Below, in pieces: positions 4,654-32,639 of a stretch of 64,000 bases of DNA. Where the stretch lies: NCBI GenBank assembly GCA_963709905.1, contig CAVPYI010000018.1:223300-287299 (forward strand), written 5' to 3'. How positions within the stretch are numbered: position 1 is the stretch's first letter; every line of letters starts with the position of its first letter. A program made the translations under genes and the position numbers. A model generated the notes under the pieces. The model did no database searches, was not told the origin of the DNA, and saw only the letters and a program-made list of their open reading frames with translations. Source of the DNA: an uncultured Gemmatimonadales bacterium (lineage in GTDB: Bacteria > Gemmatimonadota > Gemmatimonadetes > Gemmatimonadales > GWC2-71-9).

Positions 4654-4726
4654 CCGGCCTCGCTTTGGGTAGACTGAACGCAGGACGGCGGGTCTTGTGG
4701 GGATGTTTCACGACGCACCGTTGCTT

Positions 4727-4836
4727 GAGGGCCCAGGGCCCGGAGCCCAGGGCCCAGTGAGTAATGACTTGTTGGTAGGTGACCCGGTGACTCAGGCTCA
4801 CACCACTGGGCCCTCGGCCCTGGGCCCTGGGCCCTC
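4727..4836. repeat. Two inverted arrays of GGGCCCA-type heptamers (33-nt arms, 30/33 complementary, 44-nt spacer)
   Basis: Left arm gagggcccagggcccggagcccagggcccagtg (4727-4759). Right arm cactgggccctcggccctgggccctgggccctc (4804-4836). Located in the divergent gap between the starts at 4653 (-) and 4871 (+). Confidence 0.8.
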
Positions 4837-4870
4837 AAACCCGACCCTACCTTATCCCCGAGCCCCATTC

Positions 4871-21433: not shown

Positions 21434-24085
21434 TCAGAACGAGACCCGGAGGCGGGAGGTGATGAGCCGCCCGATGTCGGGGGTGCCGATGAACTCGGCG
21501 TGCTCGTGGTCGAGCACATTCAGCACATCGACGGAGAGCCAGGTCTCGAGCGCCCAGGGGATCCGCACGCCGACGCCGGCGTCGAACACCGCGAACGCCG
21601 GTACCCGGCCGACGTAGGCGGGTGAACTCACCGAGAAGGCGGCGGTGCCCCGGGCGCGGAGCGAGGCCCGGTAGCCGCCGGGATCGTCGCGCCAGTCGAT
21701 GCCGAGGTTGCCCTTGTGTCGCGGCGCCTGGAACAGCAGGAAACCGGCGTTGCCGCCGAGGTCGGTGGAGTCCTTGCTGGCGTAGGAGTAGCCCGCGGTC
21801 ACCGACAGCCGTTCCGACGCTCGCCAGCCGAGGGTGAAGTCGACGCCCCAGAACTGGTAGCGCCCGCCCTGGGTCGCCGGCTGGAAGATCAGCAGGTCGG
21901 CGCCCGGCACTTCGCGGGGCGAGATCGTCCCGACCGGAATGGTGGCCACCGCGGCTGCCACCGCCTGGGCCTGCGGTGCGGGCATGTACTGGCCCAGGTA
22001 CTGGGTCAGGGTGACGGGCTCGTAGAACACGTTGGGCGTGTTGACGCTCGAGGTGGTCGCGAAGACCCGGCTGGCGCGGGTGTAATAGAAGTCCACGGTC
22101 GTGAACAGCCGTTCGGTGAGGTAGCCCTTGTAGCCGGCCTCGAGCGAACTCTCCACCGTGCGCCGCACCGGGGCCACGTCCAGCACCTGGGCCGCGGTGA
22201 CCGGAGTGAAGGTCTGCAGGGCGGGATTGAGCAGCGCCAGCTGGCTGCCGACGTCGGCGGCGGTCGGCGGGGGGATGCCTGACAGATCCACCCCCTGGGC
22301 CTGCATCAGGGCGACGATCGCCGGCCAGGCCAGGGTGGCATCGGCGGGGGTGGTCACGATCTGGCCGCCGGCGAACGCCGCCGGGATCCGCATGCAGAGC
22401 CCGCCACAGGAGCGATCGAAGGTGAAGCCCTGCCCCGCCGATCCTTCGAGCCGGAGCGAGAACGGCAGCGGGCCCAGCGGGCCGAGGTCGAGGTCGGGGA
22501 ACAGCGCCCGGGCGGACGGCTGAGCGAAGGAGCGACTCCAGCCGGCGCGCAGCGCGTGGTTGGGGGTCGGCTTGATGACCACGGCGGCGCGCGGCGAGAG
22601 GAAGAACGCGTCGGCCAGGCGGTTGTGGTGGTCGAGCCGGAGCGCGCCGCTCAGCTCCACCCGCGGTCCGGCCGCGGCGCTGGCATGGAGGTAGCCGCCG
22701 GTCTCCCGGAGGTCGTCGTCGTTCTCGAACCGTCCGTTGAGGATCCCGCCGGTGCGGGGAATGCCCCAGCGGAAGTCGCCGCCGGCGAGGAGCCGGAGCG
22801 GGCCCCGCTCGGTGCGATACTGGGCCTGGGCAGCGAAGCGCCGGGAGTTCTCCTTGAGGTAGGCGCCGCTCCGGAGGTTGTACACGTCGCCGGCGTCGCT
22901 CAGGTCGAGCATGAGGTTGGCGAAGAGATGGGGATGTTCGAGCCGAGTCTGGAAGAAGGTCGACCGCCAGCCGGTGGATTGAGCGGCACCGGCTTCCGCT
23001 CCGGTCTCCACCCCCACGCCCCGGCTGACACCGGCGCTGGTCACCAGGATGGCGCCCGGCGCCACCATCCAGTCAGCCCGGGCCTCCGACTGGAACACCC
23101 GGGTGTCGGGTCGCCGCCGGCCGATGAGCAGGGTATCCGCCTGGGCGCCGGCTGCCAGCGCCTGAGCCCGCAACTGGGCCTCGACCGGATCGGTGTAGTG
23201 CCACTCATCGGCCCGGGCGTAGCGGGCCGACAGCTTGACCCCGACCCGGGTGCCCACCCGCCGGGAGAGCCGGAACGAGCCGTCGGCGTAGTTGCGCTGC
23301 CCGCCGGTGAAGCTGAGATGGGTCTCGGGCTCGCCCAGCGGCGAGCGGCTGATGAAGTGGACGATGCCGCGGCGACTGTTCGGGCCGTAGATCACGGCAC
23401 CCGGTCCCCGGACCACCTCGATCCGGTCCAGGTCATCGGTCGTGGCGGGGATCAGGCCGGCGTTGTTGTACTCCAGCACCGGCAGCGAGGCGTAGCGGTA
23501 GTCCGACAGCATCAGCAGGTCGGACGCCGTCACCGACCGCGGGCCGCGGGCGCTGAAGGTCTGGCTGAAGAATCCCTTGGAAGCGTAATCGACGCCGGCG
23601 ACGTCGCGCAGGTGATCGGCGAGGGTGGGGGCGACGGTGGTGAGCAGCTTTTCGCGGGGCACGACGGTTACGGCGGTGGGGCTCCTGAGCGCGGTCTCCA
23701 GCGCCAGGTTGGCGGTAACCACCAGCGGCTCGAGCTGCAGCGCCCGCTCTTCCAGCCGGACGTCGAGGCTCTGGTCCACCGCCCCGACATCGATGGGATT
23801 CTCGATGGGAGTAAAGCCGATGCGCGAGACCTGAATCAGGTAGCTGCCGGGCGATACCTGGGCGAGGCGAAACCGTCCCCGGCCATCGGTCTCGGCGGCG
23901 GCGACGGACTGCCCTTCCATAATAAGGAAGACCCGGGCTCCCTCCAGCCGGGCGCCGGTGGCCGAATCGGTGACGATGCCGCCGACCCGCGCGGTCTGCG
24001 CCGCGGCACCGTCGGCGAGCAGCACGAGCCCCAGCAGCGCGAGAGAAGCACGAAGCCAGATTGCACCGGCACCACAACGGGGCAA
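21434..24085 (-). CDS. TonB-dependent receptor with a carboxypeptidase-regulatory-like N-domain
   Basis: Signal LALLGLVLLADGAAAQ, CarbopepD_reg-like GIVTDSATGARLEGARVFL, plug region and a long beta-barrel ending ...SRLRVSF. A TTG start at 24085 preceded by aggaggga is inferred; the ORF is open to 24163. Confidence 0.9.
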   Translation of the reverse strand: MPRCGAGAIWLRASLALLGLVLLADGAAAQTARVGGIVTDSATGARLEGARVFLIMEGQSVAAAETDGRGRFRLAQVSPGSYLIQVSRIGFTPIENPIDVGAVDQSLDVRLEERALQLEPLVVTANLALETALRSPTAVTVVPREKLLTTVAPTLADHLRDVAGVDYASKGFFSQTFSARGPRSVTASDLLMLSDYRYASLPVLEYNNAGLIPATTDDLDRIEVVRGPGAVIYGPNSRRGIVHFISRSPLGEPETHLSFTGGQRNYADGSFRLSRRVGTRVGVKLSARYARADEWHYTDPVEAQLRAQALAAGAQADTLLIGRRRPDTRVFQSEARADWMVAPGAILVTSAGVSRGVGVETGAEAGAAQSTGWRSTFFQTRLEHPHLFANLMLDLSDAGDVYNLRSGAYLKENSRRFAAQAQYRTERGPLRLLAGGDFRWGIPRTGGILNGRFENDDDLRETGGYLHASAAAGPRVELSGALRLDHHNRLADAFFLSPRAAVVIKPTPNHALRAGWSRSFAQPSARALFPDLDLGPLGPLPFSLRLEGSAGQGFTFDRSCGGLCMRIPAAFAGGQIVTTPADATLAWPAIVALMQAQGVDLSGIPPPTAADVGSQLALLNPALQTFTPVTAAQVLDVAPVRRTVESSLEAGYKGYLTERLFTTVDFYYTRASRVFATTSSVNTPNVFYEPVTLTQYLGQYMPAPQAQAVAAAVATIPVGTISPREVPGADLLIFQPATQGGRYQFWGVDFTLGWRASERLSVTAGYSYASKDSTDLGGNAGFLLFQAPRHKGNLGIDWRDDPGGYRASLRARGTAAFSVSSPAYVGRVPAFAVFDAGVGVRIPWALETWLSVDVLNVLDHEHAEFIGTPDIGRLITSRLRVSF

Positions 24086-24187
24086 CTCGGCCTCCCTCCT
24101 CGGATTTACGATTTGGGTATGAAGGGTGTGGGAAACGGGGACTAGGATACCGTCCGGCGCCACGAAGCGCTAGGGCGGCGGTTCTCG

Positions 24188-24229
24188 GAGAAGTGAGAAG
24201 TGAGAAGTAAGAAGGGAGAAGTGAGAAGT
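24188..24229. repeat. Six tandem GAGAAGT (GTGAGAA) heptamers
   Basis: gagaagt x3, aagaagg, gagaagt x2, in the divergent gap between the receptor and the CxxCH-protein gene. Confidence 0.85.
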
Positions 24230-24290
24230 CAGGGGTAAGAGGATGGCGGAACGGTCCGGGGCGAGTAGGTTCGTGGGGGGCTATGGTCCC

Positions 24291-24311
24291 CTTCTCACTT
24301 CTCACTTCTCA
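24291..24311. repeat. Three tandem CTTCTCA heptamers (reverse complement of the 24188 array), ending 1 nt before the ATG at 24313
   Basis: cttctca x3. They can form about 21 bp of perfect pairing with 24188-24208. They lie between the in-frame ATGs at 24283 and 24313. Confidence 0.85.
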
Positions 24312-24312
24312 C

Positions 24313-25515
24313 ATGCCAATCTCCCCTCCAGTAGGACTGGCGCTGGCGGCGGCTTTTGCGGTGGTCACGGCCGGCGCTGCGACGTTTGGACGGATGGCGG
24401 ACCGCCGGTTCCCGGAGGCCGGGATGCCGGTGCTGGCGGCGAGTCGCGACGCCTGTCCGCTCACGCCGGCCCAGACCCGGAAGGCGGTGGAGGCCTTCGA
24501 GGAGATGATGCCGGTGCTGATGCATCCCCGCTGCCTCAACTGCCATGGCGGGGTGGATCCGTTCGTGGAGCCGAGCGAGGGGAGCCATGTGGGCGGGAAA
24601 ATGGACAGCCGGCCGCGGCGGATCGCCCAGTGCCAGGAATGCCACGACGGGCTCCCGGGGTGGGACGTGCCGGTGGACGTGATGTTCTTCGTGGGTAAGA
24701 GCGCCCGGGAGCTGTGCATGCTGTTCAAGCGGACCGAGCCCGACGGGGCCCGGTTCGTGGGCCACATCGAGCACGAGAACGGCGGGATCCAGTTCGTCGA
24801 AATGGCGTTCCGGGGTGACCGGGCGCTCAACGAGGGAGCGAAGTCGATCTACCAGATCGAGACCGGGCGGGCGTTGGTGATCGAGCCGCCGCCCGGTACC
24901 CACCGGGAGCTGGTGGCCCAGGCACAGGCGTGGGCCGACGCGGTGGGCGCGGGATGGACCGTCATGCCCGACTGCGGCTGCAAGCCGACCAGCGGCGCCT
25001 GGGTCGGCACGGTGAACGTGGTGTTCGTGCTGCAGGCCGCAGAATTGGGCACCGTGACCGAGACCTTGAAGTCCACGGTCCGGCTGGAGATCGACTCCAG
25101 CTTCACCGATGACCCGGCCCAGTATTTCAAGTCGGTATCGGGGACCATCAAGTGGCACTCCCAGTGGGTGGGCAAGTGCAGCGCCAACGCCTCGGGCACC
25201 GTTCCGATCGGGATCGGCGCCGACGACAACCCGATGGCGATGATGCACGTGGCGGATCAGACCGACGGCAACGGTACCCGGTACAACGTGTCCCTCGGTC
25301 CGTGGCCGGACCAGTACCAGCCCCGGTTCATCGTCCGGTGCGGGGACTCGCACTCATTTCCGGGACTCCTGTACGGCCTTGGCAACTGGTGGAATCATCC
25401 GGTCCCGGGGATGGTCTCGCCCGACGGCAAGACCCTCAAGGGCAGCTATCAGGCGCAGGTCGGCCCGAGTGCGACGGAGGTGTGGGAGTGGGATCTGAGG
25501 CTGGTGGAGGAGTGA
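24313..25515 (+). CDS. Secreted protein with two CxxCH haem-binding motifs (planctomycete-cytochrome-like N-domain) and an unknown C-terminal domain
   Basis: Motifs CLNCHGG and CQECHDG. Hydrophobic N-terminus GLALAAAFAVVTAGAA. An alternative start exists at 24283. Confidence 0.7.
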   Translation: MPISPPVGLALAAAFAVVTAGAATFGRMADRRFPEAGMPVLAASRDACPLTPAQTRKAVEAFEEMMPVLMHPRCLNCHGGVDPFVEPSEGSHVGGKMDSRPRRIAQCQECHDGLPGWDVPVDVMFFVGKSARELCMLFKRTEPDGARFVGHIEHENGGIQFVEMAFRGDRALNEGAKSIYQIETGRALVIEPPPGTHRELVAQAQAWADAVGAGWTVMPDCGCKPTSGAWVGTVNVVFVLQAAELGTVTETLKSTVRLEIDSSFTDDPAQYFKSVSGTIKWHSQWVGKCSANASGTVPIGIGADDNPMAMMHVADQTDGNGTRYNVSLGPWPDQYQPRFIVRCGDSHSFPGLLYGLGNWWNHPVPGMVSPDGKTLKGSYQAQVGPSATEVWEWDLRLVEE

Positions 25516-25521
25516 GGCTGA

Positions 25522-25602
25522 GGCGGACAGGGCGGACAGGGCGGACAAGGCGGACAGGGCGGACAAGGCGGACAAGGCGGACAAGGCGGACAAGGCGGAC
25601 AG
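25522..25602. repeat. Nine tandem GGCGGACAR nonamers
   Basis: Read directly. Starts 7 nt after the stop at 25515. Confidence 0.9.
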
Positions 25603-25634
25603 GAGTGACGGTCAGACGGCCACGGTAGTCGCGA

Positions 25635-25743
25635 GCTGGGAGCCGGGACGCCCCGCCGCGCGCTGACGTGCGCGCGAGAGGTCCGGCGCTCACACGCGAC
25701 GACCGCTCACGAAGGCGCGCTTCGGGGCATCCCGGCTCCCAGC
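25635..25743. other. Long-range hairpin (20-nt arms, 19/20 complementary) enclosing a smaller GC hairpin
   Basis: gctgggagccgggacgcccc (25635-25654) pairs with ggggcatcccggctcccagc (25724-25743). Inner hairpin cgcgcgc-tgacgt-gcgcgcg. It lies between the nonamer and heptamer arrays. Confidence 0.5.
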
Positions 25744-25792
25744 CCGCGCAGAGGGCGGACCCCTCGCTGCGCTCGGGGCAGGCGCGACGGGC

Positions 25793-25848
25793 GGCTGGAG
25801 GCTGACGGCCGATGGCTGACGGCTAACGGCTAACGGCTAACGGCCCGC
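25793..25848. repeat. Eight tandem GGCTRAC-type heptamers, led by GGCTGGA
   Basis: ggctgga ggctgac ggccgat ggctgac ggctaac x3 ggcccgc. Confidence 0.85.
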
Positions 25849-25879
25849 CGGTCCATCATTACATACCAAGGCTCATTCC

Positions 25880-26698
25880 ATGATCCCGTTCCGCTCGCTC
25901 CGCGTACTCGCGTTCATGGTCACGGCGACCGGGCTCATCGGCTGCCAGAAAGCGCGGACACCTACTGCGACCAGCGCCATGCTGCCGGTGGGTGACGTCC
26001 AGATCCACTACGAGATCCACGGGGCGGGAACGCCGGTCTTCCTCCTCCACGGCGGATCCGCGGACGCCGGTTCCTGGGCCAACCAGGTCCCCACCCTCTC
26101 CGCGCGGTACCGGGTGATCGCGCTGGACAGCCGCGGCCATGGCCGCTCCACCTACTCGGAACGGCCGCTCAGTTATGCGCTCATGGCCTCGGACGTGCTC
26201 GCGGTCATGGACAGTCTGGGGATCCGGCAGGCCCACGTCGTAGGCTGGAGCGACGGTGCCAACATCGGGCTGGAGCTGGCCATGCATCACCCCGAACGGC
26301 TGCTCAAGGTGATCGCCTACGGCGCCAACTTCGATCCCTCCGGTATCCGCGCCGACGCCATGGAGAACGAGAAGCTGACCCAGTTCCTGGCGGCCGCGGC
26401 CGCCAACTACCGCACGGTGTCGCCTGCCCCGGCGCGGTGGGACGCCCTCCTCGCCAACCTCGGCACGATGTGGGAGTCCCAGCCACGCTTCACTGCCGAG
26501 CAGCTCGGCCGCATCGCGATCCCCATCCTGGTCCTCGACGGCGAAATGGAGGAGGCCATCGATACTGCGCACACCCGGGAACTGGCTCGGCGGATCCCGA
26601 CCGCATCCCTCACCCTCATGCCGGGCACCGGACACTTCGCCCCTTGGGAGCAGCCGGCCAGGTTCAACGCCATTGTCATTGGCTTCCTGGACCAGTAG
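25880..26698 (+). CDS. Alpha/beta hydrolase lipoprotein
   Basis: Lipobox TATGLIGC. HGG oxyanion region (FLLHGGSADAGSW). Nucleophile elbow GWSDGA. C-terminal PGTGHF. Confidence 0.85.
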   Translation: MIPFRSLRVLAFMVTATGLIGCQKARTPTATSAMLPVGDVQIHYEIHGAGTPVFLLHGGSADAGSWANQVPTLSARYRVIALDSRGHGRSTYSERPLSYALMASDVLAVMDSLGIRQAHVVGWSDGANIGLELAMHHPERLLKVIAYGANFDPSGIRADAMENEKLTQFLAAAAANYRTVSPAPARWDALLANLGTMWESQPRFTAEQLGRIAIPILVLDGEMEEAIDTAHTRELARRIPTASLTLMPGTGHFAPWEQPARFNAIVIGFLDQ

Positions 26699-26703
26699 GG
26701 AGA

Positions 26704-26837
26704 GGCGGACAGGGCGGACAGGACGGACAGGGCGGACAGGGCGGCAGGGCGGACAGGGCGGACAGGGCGGACAGGGCGGAGGCAGGGCGGACAAGGCGGA
26801 CAAGGCGGACAGGGCGGACAGGGCGGACAGGGCGGAC
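26704..26837. repeat. About 15 tandem GGCGGACAR nonamers (a few units with 1-2 nt indels)
   Basis: Starts 6 nt after the stop at 26698. Contains runs of GGG separated by 6 nt. Confidence 0.9.
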
Positions 26838-26977
26838 GGCTGGAGGCTAACAGCTAACGGCTAATGGCTGACAGCTGACGCCTGACGCCTGACGCCTGAC
26901 GCCTGACGCCTGACGCCTGACGCCTGACGCCTGACGCCTGACGCCTGACACCCAACGCCCGACGCCCGACGCCCGAG
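26838..26977. repeat. About 20 tandem heptamers: GGCTGGA, GGCTAAC-type x5, GCCTGAC x10, GCCCGAC x3-4
   Basis: Read directly. Ends 3 nt before the dctM stop codon (26980-26982, minus strand). Confidence 0.9.
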
Positions 26978-26979
26978 CT

Positions 26980-28311
26980 CTAACGGCTCCCGTAATACAA
27001 CTCCGGCAGCCAGAGCGCGATCTCCGGGAAGATGATGACCAGGCCCAGCCCCAGCGATCATGAGCAGCACGAACGGGATGATCGAGCGGTAGATGTCGAC
27101 CAGCGTGATTTCCGGGGGCGCCATCGCCCGCATCAGGAACAGGTTGTATCCGAAGGGCGGCGTCATGTAGGCGATCTGGCAGGTGATGGTGTAGAGCACG
27201 CCGTACCAGATCGGGTTGAATCCCAGGGAGATGATCAGCGGCACGTACAGCGGCGCCACGATGATCAGCATGGCGGTGTCGTCGAGGAACGTGCCCATGA
27301 TGATGTAGGTCAGCTGCATCAGCACCAGCACCTGCCAGGGCTCGAGACCCCACTTCTCGAGGAACAGGCTTTCGATCGCCTTCACCGCGCCCAGGCCGTC
27401 GAAGACCGCGCCGAAGGCCAGCGCCGCCAGGATGATCCACATGAACATGCAGCTCACGACCAGGCTCTTGCGGAGGGTGTCTTCCATCACCTTCCGGGTG
27501 ATGCGGCCCTTGTACCAGGCGACCAAGCGTGGCCATGGCCGCACCGACGGCGGAACATTCCACCATGCTGGTGACGCCCATCAGGAACAGCCCGGTCATG
27601 GAGAAGATGATGAGCAGCGGCAGGATGCCGGCCCGGAGCAGGCGGATGCGCTCTCCCCAGGAGATCTGCTGCCGTTCCTCCAGCGGCAGGGGCGGCCCCA
27701 GCTCCGGCTGGAGCCAGCAGCGGATCAGGATGTACGCGACGAACAGCGCGGCCAGCAGCAGCCCCGGCATGACCCCGGCCAGCCAGAGCTGGCCCACCGG
27801 CTGCCGGGCGATCATGCCGTAGAGCACGAGCACGACGCTGGGCGGGATCATGATGCCGAGCGAGCTGCCGGCCTGGATGACCCCGGTCACCATGATCTTG
27901 TCGTAGCCGCGCTTGAGCAGCTCCGGCATGGCGACGCTGGCGCCGATCGCCAGGCCCGCCACGCTCAGGCCGTTCATGGCCGAGATCGCCACCATGAGCA
28001 GCACCGTGCCGATGGCCAGCCCGCCGCGCATCGGACCGGTCCAGACGTGGAACATGCGGTAGAGATCGCCCGCGATGCCGGACTCGGACAGCATGTAGCC
28101 CATGTAGACGAACATCGGGCAGGGTCAGCAGCGGATACCAGTTCAGCAGGGTGATGGTCGAGGCGAACGGCATCTCGACGGCGCCCTTCCCCCACAGCGC
28201 CAGGGCGAAGACCGTGGCCACGAAGCCGATGGCGCCGAAGACCCGCTGCCCGGTGAGCAGCATCAGCATCATCATCGAGAACATCAGCAGGGCGATCGCC
28301 TCGTAACTCAT
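26980..28311 (-). pseudogene. dctM: TRAP transporter large permease DctM, interrupted by 3 frameshifts (pseudogene or assembly indels)
   Basis: DctM-like sequence is spread over ORFs 27487..28842 (MSYEAIALLMFSMMML...), 26847..28115 (MFVYMGYMLSESGIAGDLYRMF...) and 26861..27544 (...LFLMRAMAPPEITLVDIYRSIIPFVLLMIAG), plus a fourth frame giving LGLVIIFPEIALWLPELYYGSR*. The shifts lie near 28117, 27524 and 27055. The first and last sit in G/C homopolymer runs. Confidence 0.8.
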
Positions 28312-28842
28312 GCGATCTCCTTCCCGGTGACCTTGGCGAGGTCCCTGAAGAAGATGGCGATCGCCTGCAGCAGCATCAGCACGATGCCCACGGTCATGAT
28401 GATCTTGATCGGGGCCATCGGCGGCGCCCACGCGGAATAGTTCGTCTGCCCGTACTTGAGCGCGTAGGCGGAGCTCGAGATCCCGCCGTACACCAGATAC
28501 ACCAGGTAGAAGACCAGGCAGAAGGCGGTGATCGAATCCACGAACGCCCGGGTCTTCGGCGGTCCAGCGTTCATACGCCACGTCCATCCGGACGTGCGCG
28601 TCCAGTTGCATGGAATAGCCGCCACCGAGCAGGTAGTAGGCGGCCATCAGGAACTGCGACATCTCGATGATCCAGAGGAACGGCACGTTGAAGACGTATC
28701 GCGAGATCGAGCCGAACAGCAGCACGCCCATCATCACCAGGGCCAGGTACATGACGAAGACGCCGACGACGCGGTTGATCGCATCGACGTAGCGGACATA
28801 GGCCTTGATGACGTTGGGCATTGCCGGTTCGCTCCTGGTCAC
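28308..28842 (-). pseudogene. dctQ: TRAP transporter small permease DctQ, 1 frameshift near 28563
   Basis: The N-terminal half (VIKAYVRYVDAINRVVGVFVMYLAL...HVRMDVAYERW) and the C-terminal half (PPKTRAFVDSITAFCLVFYLVYLVYGG...) are in different frames. The stop overlaps the dctM start (ATGA). Confidence 0.75.
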
Positions 28843-28947
28843 CCGCGCGGGTGGTCAGCCGAGGCCGCGGACCGCAGGGCGGTGCTTCCCCGGCCCGGAC
28901 ATGGGCCGGGGAAGACCCCCGCCATTCGCTCTCGATTCCGACCGCGA

Positions 28948-30025
28948 TCAACTGTAGCGATACGGAGGACCGGCCTTCTTCATGAGGTCGTTGTAGTCCT
29001 TGAAGATCTGGATCACCTTGGCGCACCGGGGGCTGGTCTTGGCGATCTCGTCCCAGAACTTGAGCGCCTCCGCCTCGACCGTCGCCCATTCGGCGTCCGG
29101 GATCGTCGTCAGCTGCATCTTCTCGCCCTTCACGCGCAGCTGCGCCTCGCCGGCCCAGTACCAGTGCTGGCGGTAGTAGTGGGAGCTGTCGATGCACAGC
29201 CGGAACAGGGTCTTGAGGTGCTCGGGCACCTTGTCCCAGGCGTCGGTGTTGGCGAAATACGAGCCGATCCAGGCGCCGGAGATGTTGTTGGTGAGGAAGT
29301 ACGGCGTCACGTTGGCCCAGCCCACCGTGTAGTCCTCGGTGATGCCGGACCAGGCGATCCCGTCCAGCTCGCCGGTCTGGACCGCCACCTCGACGTCGCC
29401 CCAGGGCAGCGTGACCGGCACCACGCCGAAGCGCGCCAGGAACTTGCCGGCGGTCGGGAAGGTGAACACCCGCAGGCCCTTGAGGTCCGCGAGCCGCCTG
29501 ATCGGCTTCCGGGTGTTGAAGTTGCAGGGATCCCAGGAGCCGGCGCTGAGCCAGGTCACGCCCTCGACCTCGTTGTAGGCCTCCTCCCAGATCTCGTTCA
29601 GGCCGTGCTTGTGAAACAGCGCGGGGACATCCAGGCTGTAGCGGGTCGCGAACGGGAAGTACCCGCCGAACACGCGCGACATCGGCCGGGGCCGCGATGG
29701 AATCGTCGTCACTCTGCACCGCGTCGATGGTGCCGGCCTGCATGGCCCGGAACAGCTCGCCGGTCGGGACCAGCTGATCGGCGAAATACAGCTCGATCAC
29801 CATCTCGCCGTTGGCGGCCTTGTTGAAGGCGTCGATGGACGGCTTGATGACGTGCTCGGCCAGGGCCGGACCGGCATAGGTCTGGAGTCGCCACTTGATC
29901 GCGGTCTTCTTCGCGGTCGAGACCGCGGGGCCACCGCCTTCGCCCGGGCCGCAGGCGGCCAGCACGGCCGGCGAGGCCGCACCGGCGGCCAGAGCCGCCG
30001 TTTTCAGGAACGATCGTCGCAGCAT
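28948..30025 (-). pseudogene. dctP: TRAP transporter solute-binding protein DctP (Tat-type signal), 1 frameshift near 29685
   Basis: N-terminus MLRRSFLKTAALAAGAAS...KWRLQTYAGPAL...GTIDAVQSDDDSI is in one frame. SRVFGGYFPFATRYSLDVPALF...KKAGPPYRYS is in another. Confidence 0.8.
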
Positions 30026-30262
30026 CGTGGCTCTCCTTGAGGTAGTAGCAGGTCACCTGAGGTTCATCCTACGGCGTGCCGCCTGCCGGGCGCGGCACTG
30101 GGCCATGCACGGCAGGAGCACAGTACTGTCTCCCCGGCTTGCCGGGAGAAATCCCTTCGGGCGGGCGCAGCCCACCCCCACAACGTCGTCGGAAAAGGAG
30201 GGTCTTCGTCCCGGCCAACGTACCGGCCGGAGGCTTGGGTGTCCACCCCGGGCGGTTGGGCG

Positions 30263-30397
30263 GGCGGACGGGACGGACAGGGCGGACAGGGCGGACAGGG
30301 CGGACAGGACGGACAAGGCGGACAAGGCGGACAAGGCGGACAGGGCGGACAGGACGGACAAGACGGACAAGACGGACAAGGCGGACAGGACGGACAG
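30263..30397. repeat. About 15 tandem GRCGGACAR nonamers
   Basis: Read directly. Same unit and orientation as at 25522 and 26704. Confidence 0.9.
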
Positions 30398-30413
30398 GGC
30401 GGGCGCGACGGTC

Positions 30414-30448
30414 GGTTGGAGGCGAACGGCTAATGGCGAACGGCTGAC
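30414..30448. repeat. Five tandem heptamers: GGTTGGA, GGCGAAC, GGCTAAT, GGCGAAC, GGCTGAC
   Basis: Same GGYTGGA-led heptamer block as at 25793 and 26838. Confidence 0.8.
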
Positions 30449-30516
30449 AACCTAACGAGGAACCCCATGGGCCAACCATCGGCCTACGGGATTCCTCGTT
30501 TTGTGTGCCCCAAGAA

Positions 30517-30572
30517 CTGGGCCCTCGGCCCTGGGCACTGGGCCCTCGGTATTCGGTACCCGGTACTTCTCA
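30517..30572. repeat. Eight heptamers drifting from CTGGGCC/CTCGGCC to TTCGGTA to CTTCTCA
   Basis: The unit drifts from the revcomp GGGCCCA type to the CTTCTCA type seen at 24291. The last unit overlaps the stop codon of the minus-strand ORF at 30570-30572. Confidence 0.7.
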
Positions 30573-31244: not shown

Positions 31245-31658
31245 ACAGATATCCCCTTCCGGTTGAAGTTCGACCAGCACCTCCAGTGAATGTTCCGCGG
31301 CCCATGAGGGGGCAACGGTCCTGCGCCGATCGGCGCCTCATCACCGCTCGGCGACAGGGGTGGAGATACAAGCGGCGTGCCAGCACCGCTATCACTCTCG
31401 TTAGGTGTGTGCCATGCGCCACTGGACAAGCAGGGGTCACTCTTCGGTGGGTGATGGCGCGGCGGATTAGGTGTTGGGATTACGGGAGTTAGTGGCTGGT
31501 CGGGCGGAAGTGCCGAACACCGGGGTGCGGCGGGTTGAGGTTCCCCGAGAACGGGTAGTCGGTGTTCCGTGAGTGCATGGGGGGCGGGTGGAACGTTCCC
31601 TGGAGGTGACAGTCGGTGATCCCGGTGAGGCGATCAATGGCTGCGGATGACCGTTCAG

Positions 31659-31771
31659 GTGAGTGGTACGAGGGGTAAGCGGCTGACGGTGAGCGGTAGG
31701 CGGTGAGTGGTGACCGGCCGGCGGGTGAGGGTGAGCGGTAAGCGTTGAACGGTGAGCGGTCGGCGGGTGAG
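31659..31771. repeat. About 16 degenerate GGTGAGC-type heptamers inside a G-rich tract
   Basis: ggctgac ggtgagc ggtaggc ggtgagt ggtgacc ggccggc gggtgag ggtgagc ggtaagc gttgaac ggtgagc ggtcggc gggtgag. Confidence 0.6.
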
Positions 31772-32639
31772 GATGCCTGGGAAGTTGCTAAGGGCGGGGT
31801 GGCAAGCTGCGAAAGACGAGCGATAGGTGACTGGGGAGGACCGATCAGAGCTTGGGGGCGGGTGGTTGGCGACTCTTATGCAGGGTGCGGGCGGTTGATG
31901 CAGTCGTAAGGCGGTGACGGAGAGCGGGAAGCGGTGGAGGAGGAGCGGTTTGCCTTCATATGAGTGCGGGGATGATGAGAGGTAATGTGGGCTATGGGGT
32001 CTGGTGGGTGGGGAACGGGTGGTTCGGGTGCGGAAGATGGGCCTGAGGAGGCTGTCGGGTTTCGGTCTCCTTCAGGGTGTCGCATTCTGTAACTGTGCCC
32101 TGACGAGACAGTCCCTCGCGCGCCATCACCACTCGCAGCAAAGTCACACAACCCCGATTGAAACTCCTATCCCGACCTTCCTCGAGAACGGCAAGAGCAC
32201 CTACCCGCCTCCGGCGTACACCATCAGCGACAAGTTCAGCACCTACCGCGCCGAGTTCCAGCGGAGCATCGGGGCGGTGACCGACTGCCGGATTCGAAGG
32301 CACTCGGCGCGCAGCCGATGCAACGATTCCGGCGGGAGAGGTCGCCCTGAACGGCATCGGCCTGAGCGATCAGCTCCGGTCGGGACAAAAACGTCAAGCG
32401 CGTCGTTGCTGGCGCTTCGGAACGGTCCCGAGGCGTGTTTCGCCTCGTGGAAGATCGTGACAGTGTTCAAGTAATGGCCGCGTTTTCATCACTGTTGTTC
32501 GGTCGCTCTTAGGAGCGAGTCCCGCACTGGTCATCACGAGCGATGGTAGCTGACTGCCCGCCCGACCACATTCTTCCACAGTGAAGATGCGGTATCGCAT
32601 CGCGTCGTGTCTGTCATCTGTGAGTGGAGAGTGGCGTTT

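Follow-up and report, generated by a model that had tools for sequence, protein, structure and literature searches.

Long simple sequence repeats (long SSRs), in which units of 5–11 nt are repeated head to tail and heptamers are the commonest, were catalogued in Burkholderia, Actinobacteria, Xanthomonas, and cyanobacteria (Mrazek, Guo & Shah 2007, as relayed in PMC4679880 and PMC4692102). According to the same two papers, they concentrate in the intergenic DNA of large, high-GC, free-living genomes, and slippage was proposed for them. Here, we describe three repeat mosaics that belong to this class. They lie in a 64-kb stretch of DNA, herein called the window, from an uncultured Gemmatimonadales bacterium (contig CAVPYI010000018.1 of assembly GCA_963709905.1, positions 223,300–287,299), which is the part of the source genome covered by our repeat census. 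On its + strand, at 25521–25844 (copy 1), 26704–26977 (copy 2), and 30262–30448 (copy 3), reading of the sequence and Tandem Repeats Finder (TRF) give the same order of (GGCGGACAR)n nonamers, a GGYTGGA unit, and heptamers. The units run head to tail with periods of 9 and 7, in 9–15.7 and ~7–20 copies, respectively, and with 90–94% matches. The arrays are longer than chance would give, and units whose length is not a multiple of three are kept out of coding DNA. In their head-to-tail units of 7–9 nt, intergenic position, and length far beyond chance, the mosaics resemble the long SSRs of 2007; unlike these, as far as the catalogue is conveyed by the two later papers, they join different units in a fixed purine-to-pyrimidine order. 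The kind of repeat itself is known; new are its host lineage, the joining of different units into one mosaic, and how strongly the polarity rule holds. A literature search found no description of such arrays in Gemmatimonadetes/Gemmatimonadota.

The GGGAATC / GGGGA(C/T)T arrays of Xanthomonas and Nostoc are intergenic and G-rich, vary in unit number, occur in inverted pairs, and are not connected with mobile elements (Rehm et al. 2015, PMC4692102). They follow a positional rule, by which the repeat lies next to its 5′ neighbor, either past the stop on the coding strand or before the start on the noncoding strand (PMC4692102). The Xanthomonas arrays form G-quadruplexes (G4s) in vitro and are transcribed, and Rehm et al. 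were unable to demonstrate that they regulate genes (PMC4692102). The window arrays obey the same 5′-neighbor rule, with copies 1 and 2 beginning 5 nt past stop codons. Their unit, however, is a 9-mer with mostly GG instead of GGG tracts, and three-tetrad quadruplexes are rare in them for this reason. Furthermore, they show no preference for four units and are joined to a second array of a different unit.

TAACTGA repeats are found in marine Beggiatoaceae, cyanobacteria, and Bacteroidetes; they are intergenic, mostly comprise 2–6 copies, and lie just upstream of start codons (MacGregor 2015, PMC4679880). They share with the window the intergenic arrays of a conserved unit at many loci, in several lineages and near gene boundaries. 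As opposed to the window mosaics, this class has a single dominant unit, and no mosaics were described (PMC4679880). The Borg extrachromosomal elements carry pervasive, fast-evolving direct repeats in tandem, which have independent origins at many sites of one genome, as stated in the portion of PMC9879509 drawn on here. These repeats differ in being archaeal, in having longer units, and in often lying within genes, and that portion reports no polarity rule.

The units of the window arrays are contiguous and free of spacers, in contrast to CRISPR arrays with their 23–47-nt repeats and unique spacers of similar length. Nor do the arrays represent a known structured RNA, with zero Rfam matches at gathering score across the whole window. 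Short tandemly repeated repetitive (STRR) sequences are tandem heptanucleotides in the noncoding DNA of heterocystous cyanobacteria, with a few units common to several genera. By form, the window heptamer arrays qualify as such. They differ in phylum and base composition, in their unrelated units, and in forming a polar mosaic with a nonamer component whose 9-mer is the principal unit; relatives with the same intergenic nonamer arrays are Gemmatimonadales/Gemmatimonadota. The original prediction for this locus, made from the sequence, had drawn the STRR comparison and knew of no such composite in a high-GC noncyanobacterial genome. This holds for the present nonamer/heptamer mosaic and for the phylum, but not for tandem heptamers in general, which high-GC Xanthomonas, Burkholderia, and Actinobacteria carry.

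Bacterial interspersed mosaic elements (BIMEs) of enterobacteria are mosaics of 20–40-nt repetitive extragenic palindromic (REP) units and other motifs, mobilized by REP-associated tyrosine transposases (RAYTs). The window copies are like them in being modular intergenic mosaics at gene ends, with hairpins and recurring combinations of motifs. Unlike BIMEs, they consist of direct tandem repeats of 7–9 nt, and the 26 open reading frames (ORFs) scanned with Pfam between 9.5 and 39.7 kb of the window showed neither a transposase or integrase domain nor one resembling a RAYT, no genome-wide RAYT search having been made. Transposable elements of the miniature inverted-repeat type (MITEs) do not match either, with terminal inverted repeats and target-site duplications lacking at the three copies, the insert and spacers having no other copy among the sequences compared, and the copies being clustered.

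Architecture and kinship of the three mosaics

Copy 1 starts with nine GGCGGACAR units at 25521–25601 (TRF period 9, 9.0 copies, 94% matches), placed 5 nt past the stop codon of a gene for a 400/410-aa protein not assigned to a family. The nonamers are separated from the junction by a unique insert of 190 nt (25602–25791) that contains a long imperfect hairpin, the 45-nt arms of which (25630–25674 and 25704–25748) are 82% complementary in an inverted-repeat search. The junction unit GGCTGGA and ~7 heptamers (GGCTGAC, GGCCGAT, and GGCTAAC; TRF period 7/14/21) follow at 25792–25844 and stop 35 nt upstream of an alpha/beta hydrolase gene's start codon.

In copy 2, the nonamers (26704–26837; TRF period 9, 14.8 copies, including two irregular units of 8 and 11 nt) begin 5 nt past the hydrolase stop codon and are fused directly to GGCTGGA and ~20 heptamers at 26838–26977. 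These heptamers proceed from GGCTAAC/AGCTAAC types via ~12 copies of GCCTGAC, which differs from GGCTGAC by one base, to three copies of CGCCCGA. The period-7 call of TRF spans 26846–26973, and its main block of 14.1 copies of CTGACGC spans 26875–26973. The end of the array abuts the stop codon (26980) of a dctM remnant.

Copy 3 begins with a nonamer array at 30262–30402 (TRF period 9, 15.7 copies). Herein, TRF detects a higher-order period of 45 nt, that is, five units (3.1 copies, score 220), which indicates multi-unit duplication. A short GCGCGACGGTCGG linker lies between the nonamers and the GGTTGGA unit. By alignment and pattern search, the junction reads GCGCGACGG-TCGG-TTGGAGGC and continues into ~5 heptamers (GGCGAAC, GGCTAAT, and GGCTGAC; 30403–30448). 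The copy is extended to the right (30455–30549) by a hairpin CGAGGAACCC...GGGATTCCTCG (~30455–30500), by TTTTGTGTG, and by a pyrimidine-leaning (GGCCCTC)n array that TRF places at 30517–30549 in the same cluster; a terminator scan gave a terminator-like match at 30486–30499 within this extension.

The threefold architecture on the + strand is, therefore, as originally predicted, and sequence, TRF, and regular expressions agree on it. Its heptamers had been described as (GGCTRAC/GGCGAAC)n, which does not fit copy 2 with its main unit GCCTGAC (~12) followed by CGCCCGA (3). GGYTGGA had been taken for a separate junction unit; it is common to all three copies but is merely the first, degenerate unit of the heptamer array. 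A regular-expression count of GGCGGACAR on both strands yields 28 matches on the + strand and none on the − strand. All 28 lie inside the three arrays, and the rest of the 64 kb is free of the nonamer.

The kinship of the copies is seen at their junctions. A 20-nt junction pattern, GGYTGGAGGCKRACRGCYRA, has three exact matches, one per junction, against 0.02 expected from shuffles. In the alignment, ~45 positions are common to the three junctions, running from the last nonamers via CGG-Y-TGGAGGC into the heptamers, and the order of variant units, GGAGGC-NRAC-RGCYRAY-GGCKRAY, is identical in all of them. In copies 1 and 3 alike, the junction is preceded by GGCGCGACGG. Independent slippage would not recreate a common junction along with a fixed succession of variant units; the mosaics are, therefore, paralogs that go back to a single element, as had been proposed. 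They occupy three consecutive intergenic gaps, namely a tandem one, a convergent one, and a tandem one on the minus strand, and no further copy is present in the window. At least within these 64 kb, this clustering speaks for copying on a local scale rather than for a dispersed family. The insert of copy 1 has no second copy in the window, and BLAST against all loci fetched from other genomes found none for it, for the hairpin of copy 3, or for any other spacer.

GGCGGACAR is free of stop codons in all six frames, so that long spurious ORFs run through the arrays (26437–26850 and 29895–30455 on the + strand, 26847–28115 and 30053–30479 on the − strand), with translations such as ...RTGRTGRTG... 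and ...LSALSALS... These could be misannotated as repeat proteins. A coding reading of the nonamer, as Gly-Gly-Gln or Ala-Asp-Lys repeats, was rejected in this lineage, where the arrays lie outside the genes that bear a coding signature in GC content at third codon positions (GC3).

Polarity, relatives, and predicted structure

Relatives of the mosaics were collected by scanning one genome per species for three consecutive nonamers (a 26-nt pattern), which matched at least 103 loci. For the analysis of array order, arrays ≤250 nt apart were grouped into clusters, and polarity was scored for clusters of at least two arrays in the Gemmatimonad loci L010–L099 and L224–L242 plus five clusters of the window. 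The loci L238, L240, L241, and L242 were fetched through a protein, that is, independently of their repeat content. Gene calls for the position counts are based on the GC3 criterion, and start codons are approximate.

In 33 of the 49 clusters, a purine-rich array comes first and a pyrimidine-rich array last on the + strand, against 2 in reverse order (binomial p 4e-8). The order persists in clusters without any nonamer-family array (14 versus 2 reversed). It is found in all five window clusters (4728–4836, 24188–24312, 25521–25844, 26704–26973, and 30262–30549) and, by purine scores, in seven of seven clusters of L242, a locus not picked by its repeats. Since the purine-first order is identical when read on either strand, it does not depend on the orientation in which a locus is stored. 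Two of the five window clusters are inverted heptamer pairs. At 24188–24240/24291–24312, in a divergent intergenic region, TRF and the inverted-repeat search give (GAGAAGT)n ... (CTTCTCA)n, the right arm of which reaches the ATG of the next gene; at 4728–4757/4806–4836, TRF gives (AGGGCCC)n ... (GGGCCCT)n around a 50-nt spacer. The original prediction had not linked these two pairs, nor the heptamer arrays at 31670–31770, to the mosaics.

Inverted-complement pairs make up 20 of the 49 clusters, and 28 join unrelated units. Partner arrays of unrelated units show no greater complementarity to each other than shuffled ones do (p 0.47), and 4.6% of random heptamers would fit the nonamer no worse than GCCTGAC. 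On these two grounds, we rejected selection of the second array for pairing with the first. Because the polarity also holds in clusters of unrelated, noncomplementary units, hairpin formation cannot be its cause. Relative to genes, purines prevail on the sense strand just past stop codons in 37 cases, against 14 with pyrimidines; just ahead of start codons, pyrimidines prevail on it in 13 cases and purines in 7. Intergenic restriction, proposed as a check along with orientation bias, is evident, with 132 of 170 arrays lying between genes although only 32% of the DNA was called noncoding; all arrays of the three mosaics lie between called genes. The mosaics are one instance of a polar, multi-array architecture across the lineage, which the original prediction had not noticed.

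Gemmatimonadales/Gemmatimonadota account for 34 of the at least 103 loci among the nonamer matches listed, and at least 14 other assemblies of this group carry the same nonamer arrays. Roughly three quarters of the 34 listed loci are intergenic, with arrays that abut stop or start codons, whereas the listed high-GC matches from other phyla (Streptomyces and others) are mostly coding repeats inside ORFs. In 228 kb of Gemmatimonad loci, 41 arrays with 7–8-nt units were counted, as compared with 2 in the 398 kb of other high-GC loci from the same scan, which makes them ~36-fold denser in the former. In the Gemmatimonad loci, a nonamer array typically leads into a spacer, which in many cases holds a hairpin of its own, and then into a second array that is either the inverted complement (GTCCGCCYT)n or made of other pyrimidine-rich units (CTGCCGA, CTCAACCA, GATACCC, or CTCCCTA). 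The spacers of L012, L018, and L029 contain REP-like hairpins, GTCATTCCGAGCG..GCGAGGAATC and GGGATGACAG variants, which resemble small palindromes dispersed as a family of their own.

Genomes differ in array richness. L242 (ENA ERZ25039602 contig_16236, 1–21335) has 21 arrays of 7–9-nt units in 21 kb and a purine-rich/pyrimidine-rich pair in almost every intergenic gap, whereas L238, L240, and L241 have almost none. One gap of L242 (20230–20336, 107 nt) is wholly an inverted heptamer pair, the unit of which, AGTGAGA, also occurs at 24188 of the window. Overall, the unit repertoire of chromosomal arrays is highly diverse, and most units were found once. Particular combinations recur. The metagenome-assembled genome (MAG) CAWGSK (MFD05684.bin.2.194) carries the trio of a GGCGGACAG nonamer, CACTYGC, and YTGCCGA at three loci (L021 300–760; L065 4840–5080 and 7740–7900), with spacers between the arrays that differ from locus to locus, and GGCGGACAG is paired with CTCAACCA at two further loci, L029 and L057. 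Because these trios and pairs recur elsewhere, recurring composites are not confined to the window. The exact junction of the window mosaics is absent from the at least 103 genome loci among those listed, and its specific pattern has zero matches in the whole metagenome collection. A loose 20-mer version matched metagenome contigs at least 120 times; among the matches listed, none has nonamers and one is a different heptamer array. In viral contigs, the loose version had a single match, in L237.

Recurrence of this kind could indicate that the mosaics are nonautonomous mobile elements, MITE-like or REP/BIME-like, dispersed by a dedicated enzyme whose gene lies elsewhere in the genome. An identical 26-nt nonamer pattern at nonorthologous intergenic sites of many species would agree with this, as would the composites recurring within genomes, be it the three window copies or the CAWGSK trio, and the spacers that often have REP-like hairpins. 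However, the three copies lie within 5 kb and are not dispersed, they lack terminal inverted repeats and target-site duplications, and the spacers between identical array pairs vary by locus. In addition, the units are very diverse, most being found once, and the 26 scanned ORFs offer no transposase or RAYT-like domain. Mobility is, thus, a rather improbable explanation.

Several short-read MAG contigs (L050, L076, L079, L020, and L012) start or stop inside nonamer arrays, and it is probable that such arrays often break the assembly of Gemmatimonadota MAGs. That repeats of this type break short-read assemblies, with L050, L076, and L079 ending within nonamers, might also suggest that the arrays or their copy numbers are themselves assembly artifacts. 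This is hardly credible for the window, where ordered variant units and unique flanks stand inside a 443-kb contig and intact flanking genes end exactly at the arrays. Furthermore, the class is present in dozens of independent assemblies, the contig naming of which (k141_, k99_, NODE_, and contig_N) points to different assemblers.

A different setting is provided by L227–L235 (IMG/VR, metagenome 3300045988), which are siphovirus-like contigs with terminase, portal, major head, and ParB-methyltransferase genes. They contain ~20 GGCGGACAA / TTGTCCGCC sites (e.g., L227 11700–12130), tandem as well as dispersed, in both orientations and with AT-rich stretches between them. The field is located near contig ends, upstream of a VRR-NUC-like gene, and its sequence looks like that of a protein-binding region, such as an origin, a pac site, or a regulatory region. 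By analogy, the chromosomal nonamer might be a protein-binding site (iteron), the arrays of which titrate or recruit a DNA- or RNA-binding protein, possibly one common to phages. The dense field of ~20 sites in these 25–55-kb phage contigs of one metagenome, typical of a protein-binding region, speaks for this possibility. Its polarity, however, is opposite to the chromosomal rule, and no candidate binding protein was found. One binding protein cannot explain the class because most chromosomal arrays have quite different units. Hence, we consider the iteron explanation very unlikely.

With regard to structure, copy 2 is predicted to fold as a long interrupted hairpin (z score −8.45 as RNA, −4.4 as DNA, and −4.8 as minus-strand RNA), in which AGGCG or GGGCG of the nonamers pairs with CGCCT or CGCCC of the heptamers. 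Copy 1 folds only via the hairpin of its insert, which is its dominant helix (z −1.9). The inverted heptamer pairs fold strongly (24180–24320, z −5.1; 4715–4845, z −6.9). The nonamer arrays alone are nearly unstructured. Copies 1, 2, and 3 contain 3, 11, and 9 G3 tracts, respectively, and copies 2 and 3 contain one canonical G4 motif each. Predicted quadruplexes are of the two-tetrad type only and bring a small energy gain, which weakens a strong G-quadruplex reading.

The arrays might be selected cis-acting RNA or DNA elements that terminate, insulate, or stabilize transcripts in a lineage without canonical terminators, G-rich arrays by means of quadruplexes or R-loops and array pairs by means of stem-loops. 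The arrays that begin 5 nt past stop codons, the prevalence of purines on the sense strand behind stops (37 versus 14), and the folding of copy 2 and the inverted pairs far beyond shuffles are consistent with such a role. Canonical intrinsic terminators, consisting of a hairpin and U residues, are not above chance (2 found versus 2.6 expected in 24–32.7 kb), and the homologous Xanthomonas class forms G4s in vitro and is transcribed (PMC4692102). Against it stand the predicted quadruplexes, of two tetrads only and with a small energy gain, the mere three G3 tracts of copy 1, the noncomplementary arrays of copies 1 and 3, and the lack of enriched complementarity between partner arrays of different units. 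The same architecture, moreover, lies between divergent promoters (24188–24312 and 4728–4836), and a regulatory role was not demonstrable for Rehm et al. (PMC4692102). We, therefore, regard selected cis-acting elements as an unlikely explanation of the arrays.

Gene neighborhood

As predicted, the mosaics are intergenic and flank an intact alpha/beta hydrolase gene and dctPQM. The hydrolase gene (25880–26698, + strand; Pfam Abhydrolase_1/6) lies between copies 1 and 2, and its best outside homolog is 60% identical. To the left of copy 1, beyond the gene of the 400/410-aa protein, a TonB-dependent receptor (CarboxypepD_reg-TonB in Pfam) is encoded on the − strand at 21434–24163; a receptor of this kind is in keeping with a Gemmatimonadales/Gemmatimonadota origin.

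Copies 2 and 3 enclose a tripartite ATP-independent periplasmic (TRAP) transporter operon, dctP-dctQ-dctM (26980–30025, − strand), which consists of pseudogenes with at least 4–5 frameshifts. Positions 57–245 and 250–402 of the DctM profile fall in different frames, the DctQ profile is split into 1–57 and 57–130, and positions 90–284 of the DctP profile are detached from its N terminus. Other long ORFs of the window (901, 910, and 1437 codons) are intact; general sequencing error is, therefore, an unlikely source of the frameshifts, and the operon is truly decayed, as had been stated before. It retains the GC3 coding signature despite the frameshifts, next to long genes that are intact. The frameshifts point to recent pseudogenization or, possibly, to a locally poor consensus.

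Sigma-70 promoters show no excess over chance in 24–32.7 kb. A blastn comparison of the window with all fetched loci gave a single match, in an unrelated gene. To the right of copy 3, a 1.3-kb stretch without a convincing ORF (31281–32606) has a strong excess of G on its + strand (GC skew of 30–32 kb, +0.18) and harbors the degenerate (GAGCGGT)n arrays at 31670–31770. It lies directly upstream of a polysaccharide export/synthesis cluster (Poly_export, Wzz/GNVR tyrosine kinase, sugar transferase, and glycosyltransferase) and may be a long leader or regulatory region.

Origin and significance of the mosaics

The reading that we favor, and hold to be probable though far from certain, is that of noncoding long-unit SSR mosaics typical of array-rich Gemmatimonadales. 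They would have arisen by slippage and local recombinational copying without a transposase and would be tolerated outside genes as structured spacers. Each array would grow and shrink through replication slippage and multi-unit unequal exchange. The whole mosaic, including its junction, would then have been copied into three adjacent gaps by homology-driven recombination, gene conversion, or template switching, a process that would start in the common nonamer tract and involve no transposase. Arrays would be tolerated only outside genes and would fill gaps up to stop and start codons. Their order is probably set by selection on the transcribed strand, with purine-rich arrays after a stop and pyrimidine-rich arrays before a start or opposite the end of another gene; selection against G-rich or Shine-Dalgarno–like arrays in 5′ leaders would be an example. 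As an effect, the arrays may act as structured or insulating spacers at gene ends, with one strong stem-loop per gap: the insert in copy 1, the two arrays in copy 2, and the hairpin with U-tract in copy 3.

As direct repeats of 80–140 nt that are ~90% alike, the copies could furthermore be used in RecA-dependent recombination that deletes or duplicates the hydrolase gene and the dead TRAP operon. Such deletion or duplication is plausible. Inversion, which had also been proposed, is not expected since direct repeats allow for the other two only.

Several points weigh against the origin by slippage and local copying. The stem-loop of copy 2 may be incidental, given that 4.6% of random heptamers would equal GCCTGAC in pairing with the nonamer. 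Copy 3 does not fold in excess of shuffles (z +0.3), its sole local structure being the hairpin followed by TTTTGTGTG. Homologs of the flanking proteins (the 410-aa neighbor and the hydrolase) are at best 55–60% identical, and their neighborhoods are unrelated and not syntenic; because no homolog exceeds 60% identity or is syntenic, the source lineage has no close relative in the searched collections. The mechanism of copying between the three gaps is one that we infer. Finally, slippage alone cannot seed the same 9-mer at many nonorthologous sites in many species (at least 15 assemblies), nor can it explain why the CAWGSK trio of units recurs at three loci whose spacers differ. There may, therefore, be some dispersal or sequence-specific process.

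In its strongest form, this would be an undescribed sequence-directed process in array-rich Gemmatimonadales that seeds and copies arrays at gene boundaries with a fixed strand polarity (purine-rich array, spacer or hairpin, pyrimidine-rich array), in which case the mosaics would constitute a new class of intergenic element instead of passive products of slippage. The 9-mer at unrelated sites in at least 15 assemblies, the recurrence of composites, and the polarity between unrelated arrays are consistent with it. Its possible mechanisms are a recombinase or nuclease specific for the repeat, synthesis from a template, and expansion coupled to transcription. We consider it a tentative proposal with a low chance of being correct, and long-unit SSR mosaics spread by slippage and local copying remain our preferred reading.

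Taken alone, the locus is ordinary: noncoding simple-sequence DNA with possible local deletion or duplication. A practical side concerns an abundant soil phylum, the short-read assemblies of which are broken by such arrays and in which spurious ORFs are created across the stop-free nonamers. In some Gemmatimonadales, nearly every intergenic gap is occupied by paired arrays, the polarity of which is almost never violated, and no published description of this was found. The question of the origin and role of long-unit repeats has been open since the 2007 catalogue and was left unanswered for Xanthomonas and Nostoc in 2015. As a rule that can be counted, with 33 clusters against 2, the polarity is a constraint on any model of how long-unit repeats originate or what role they have.

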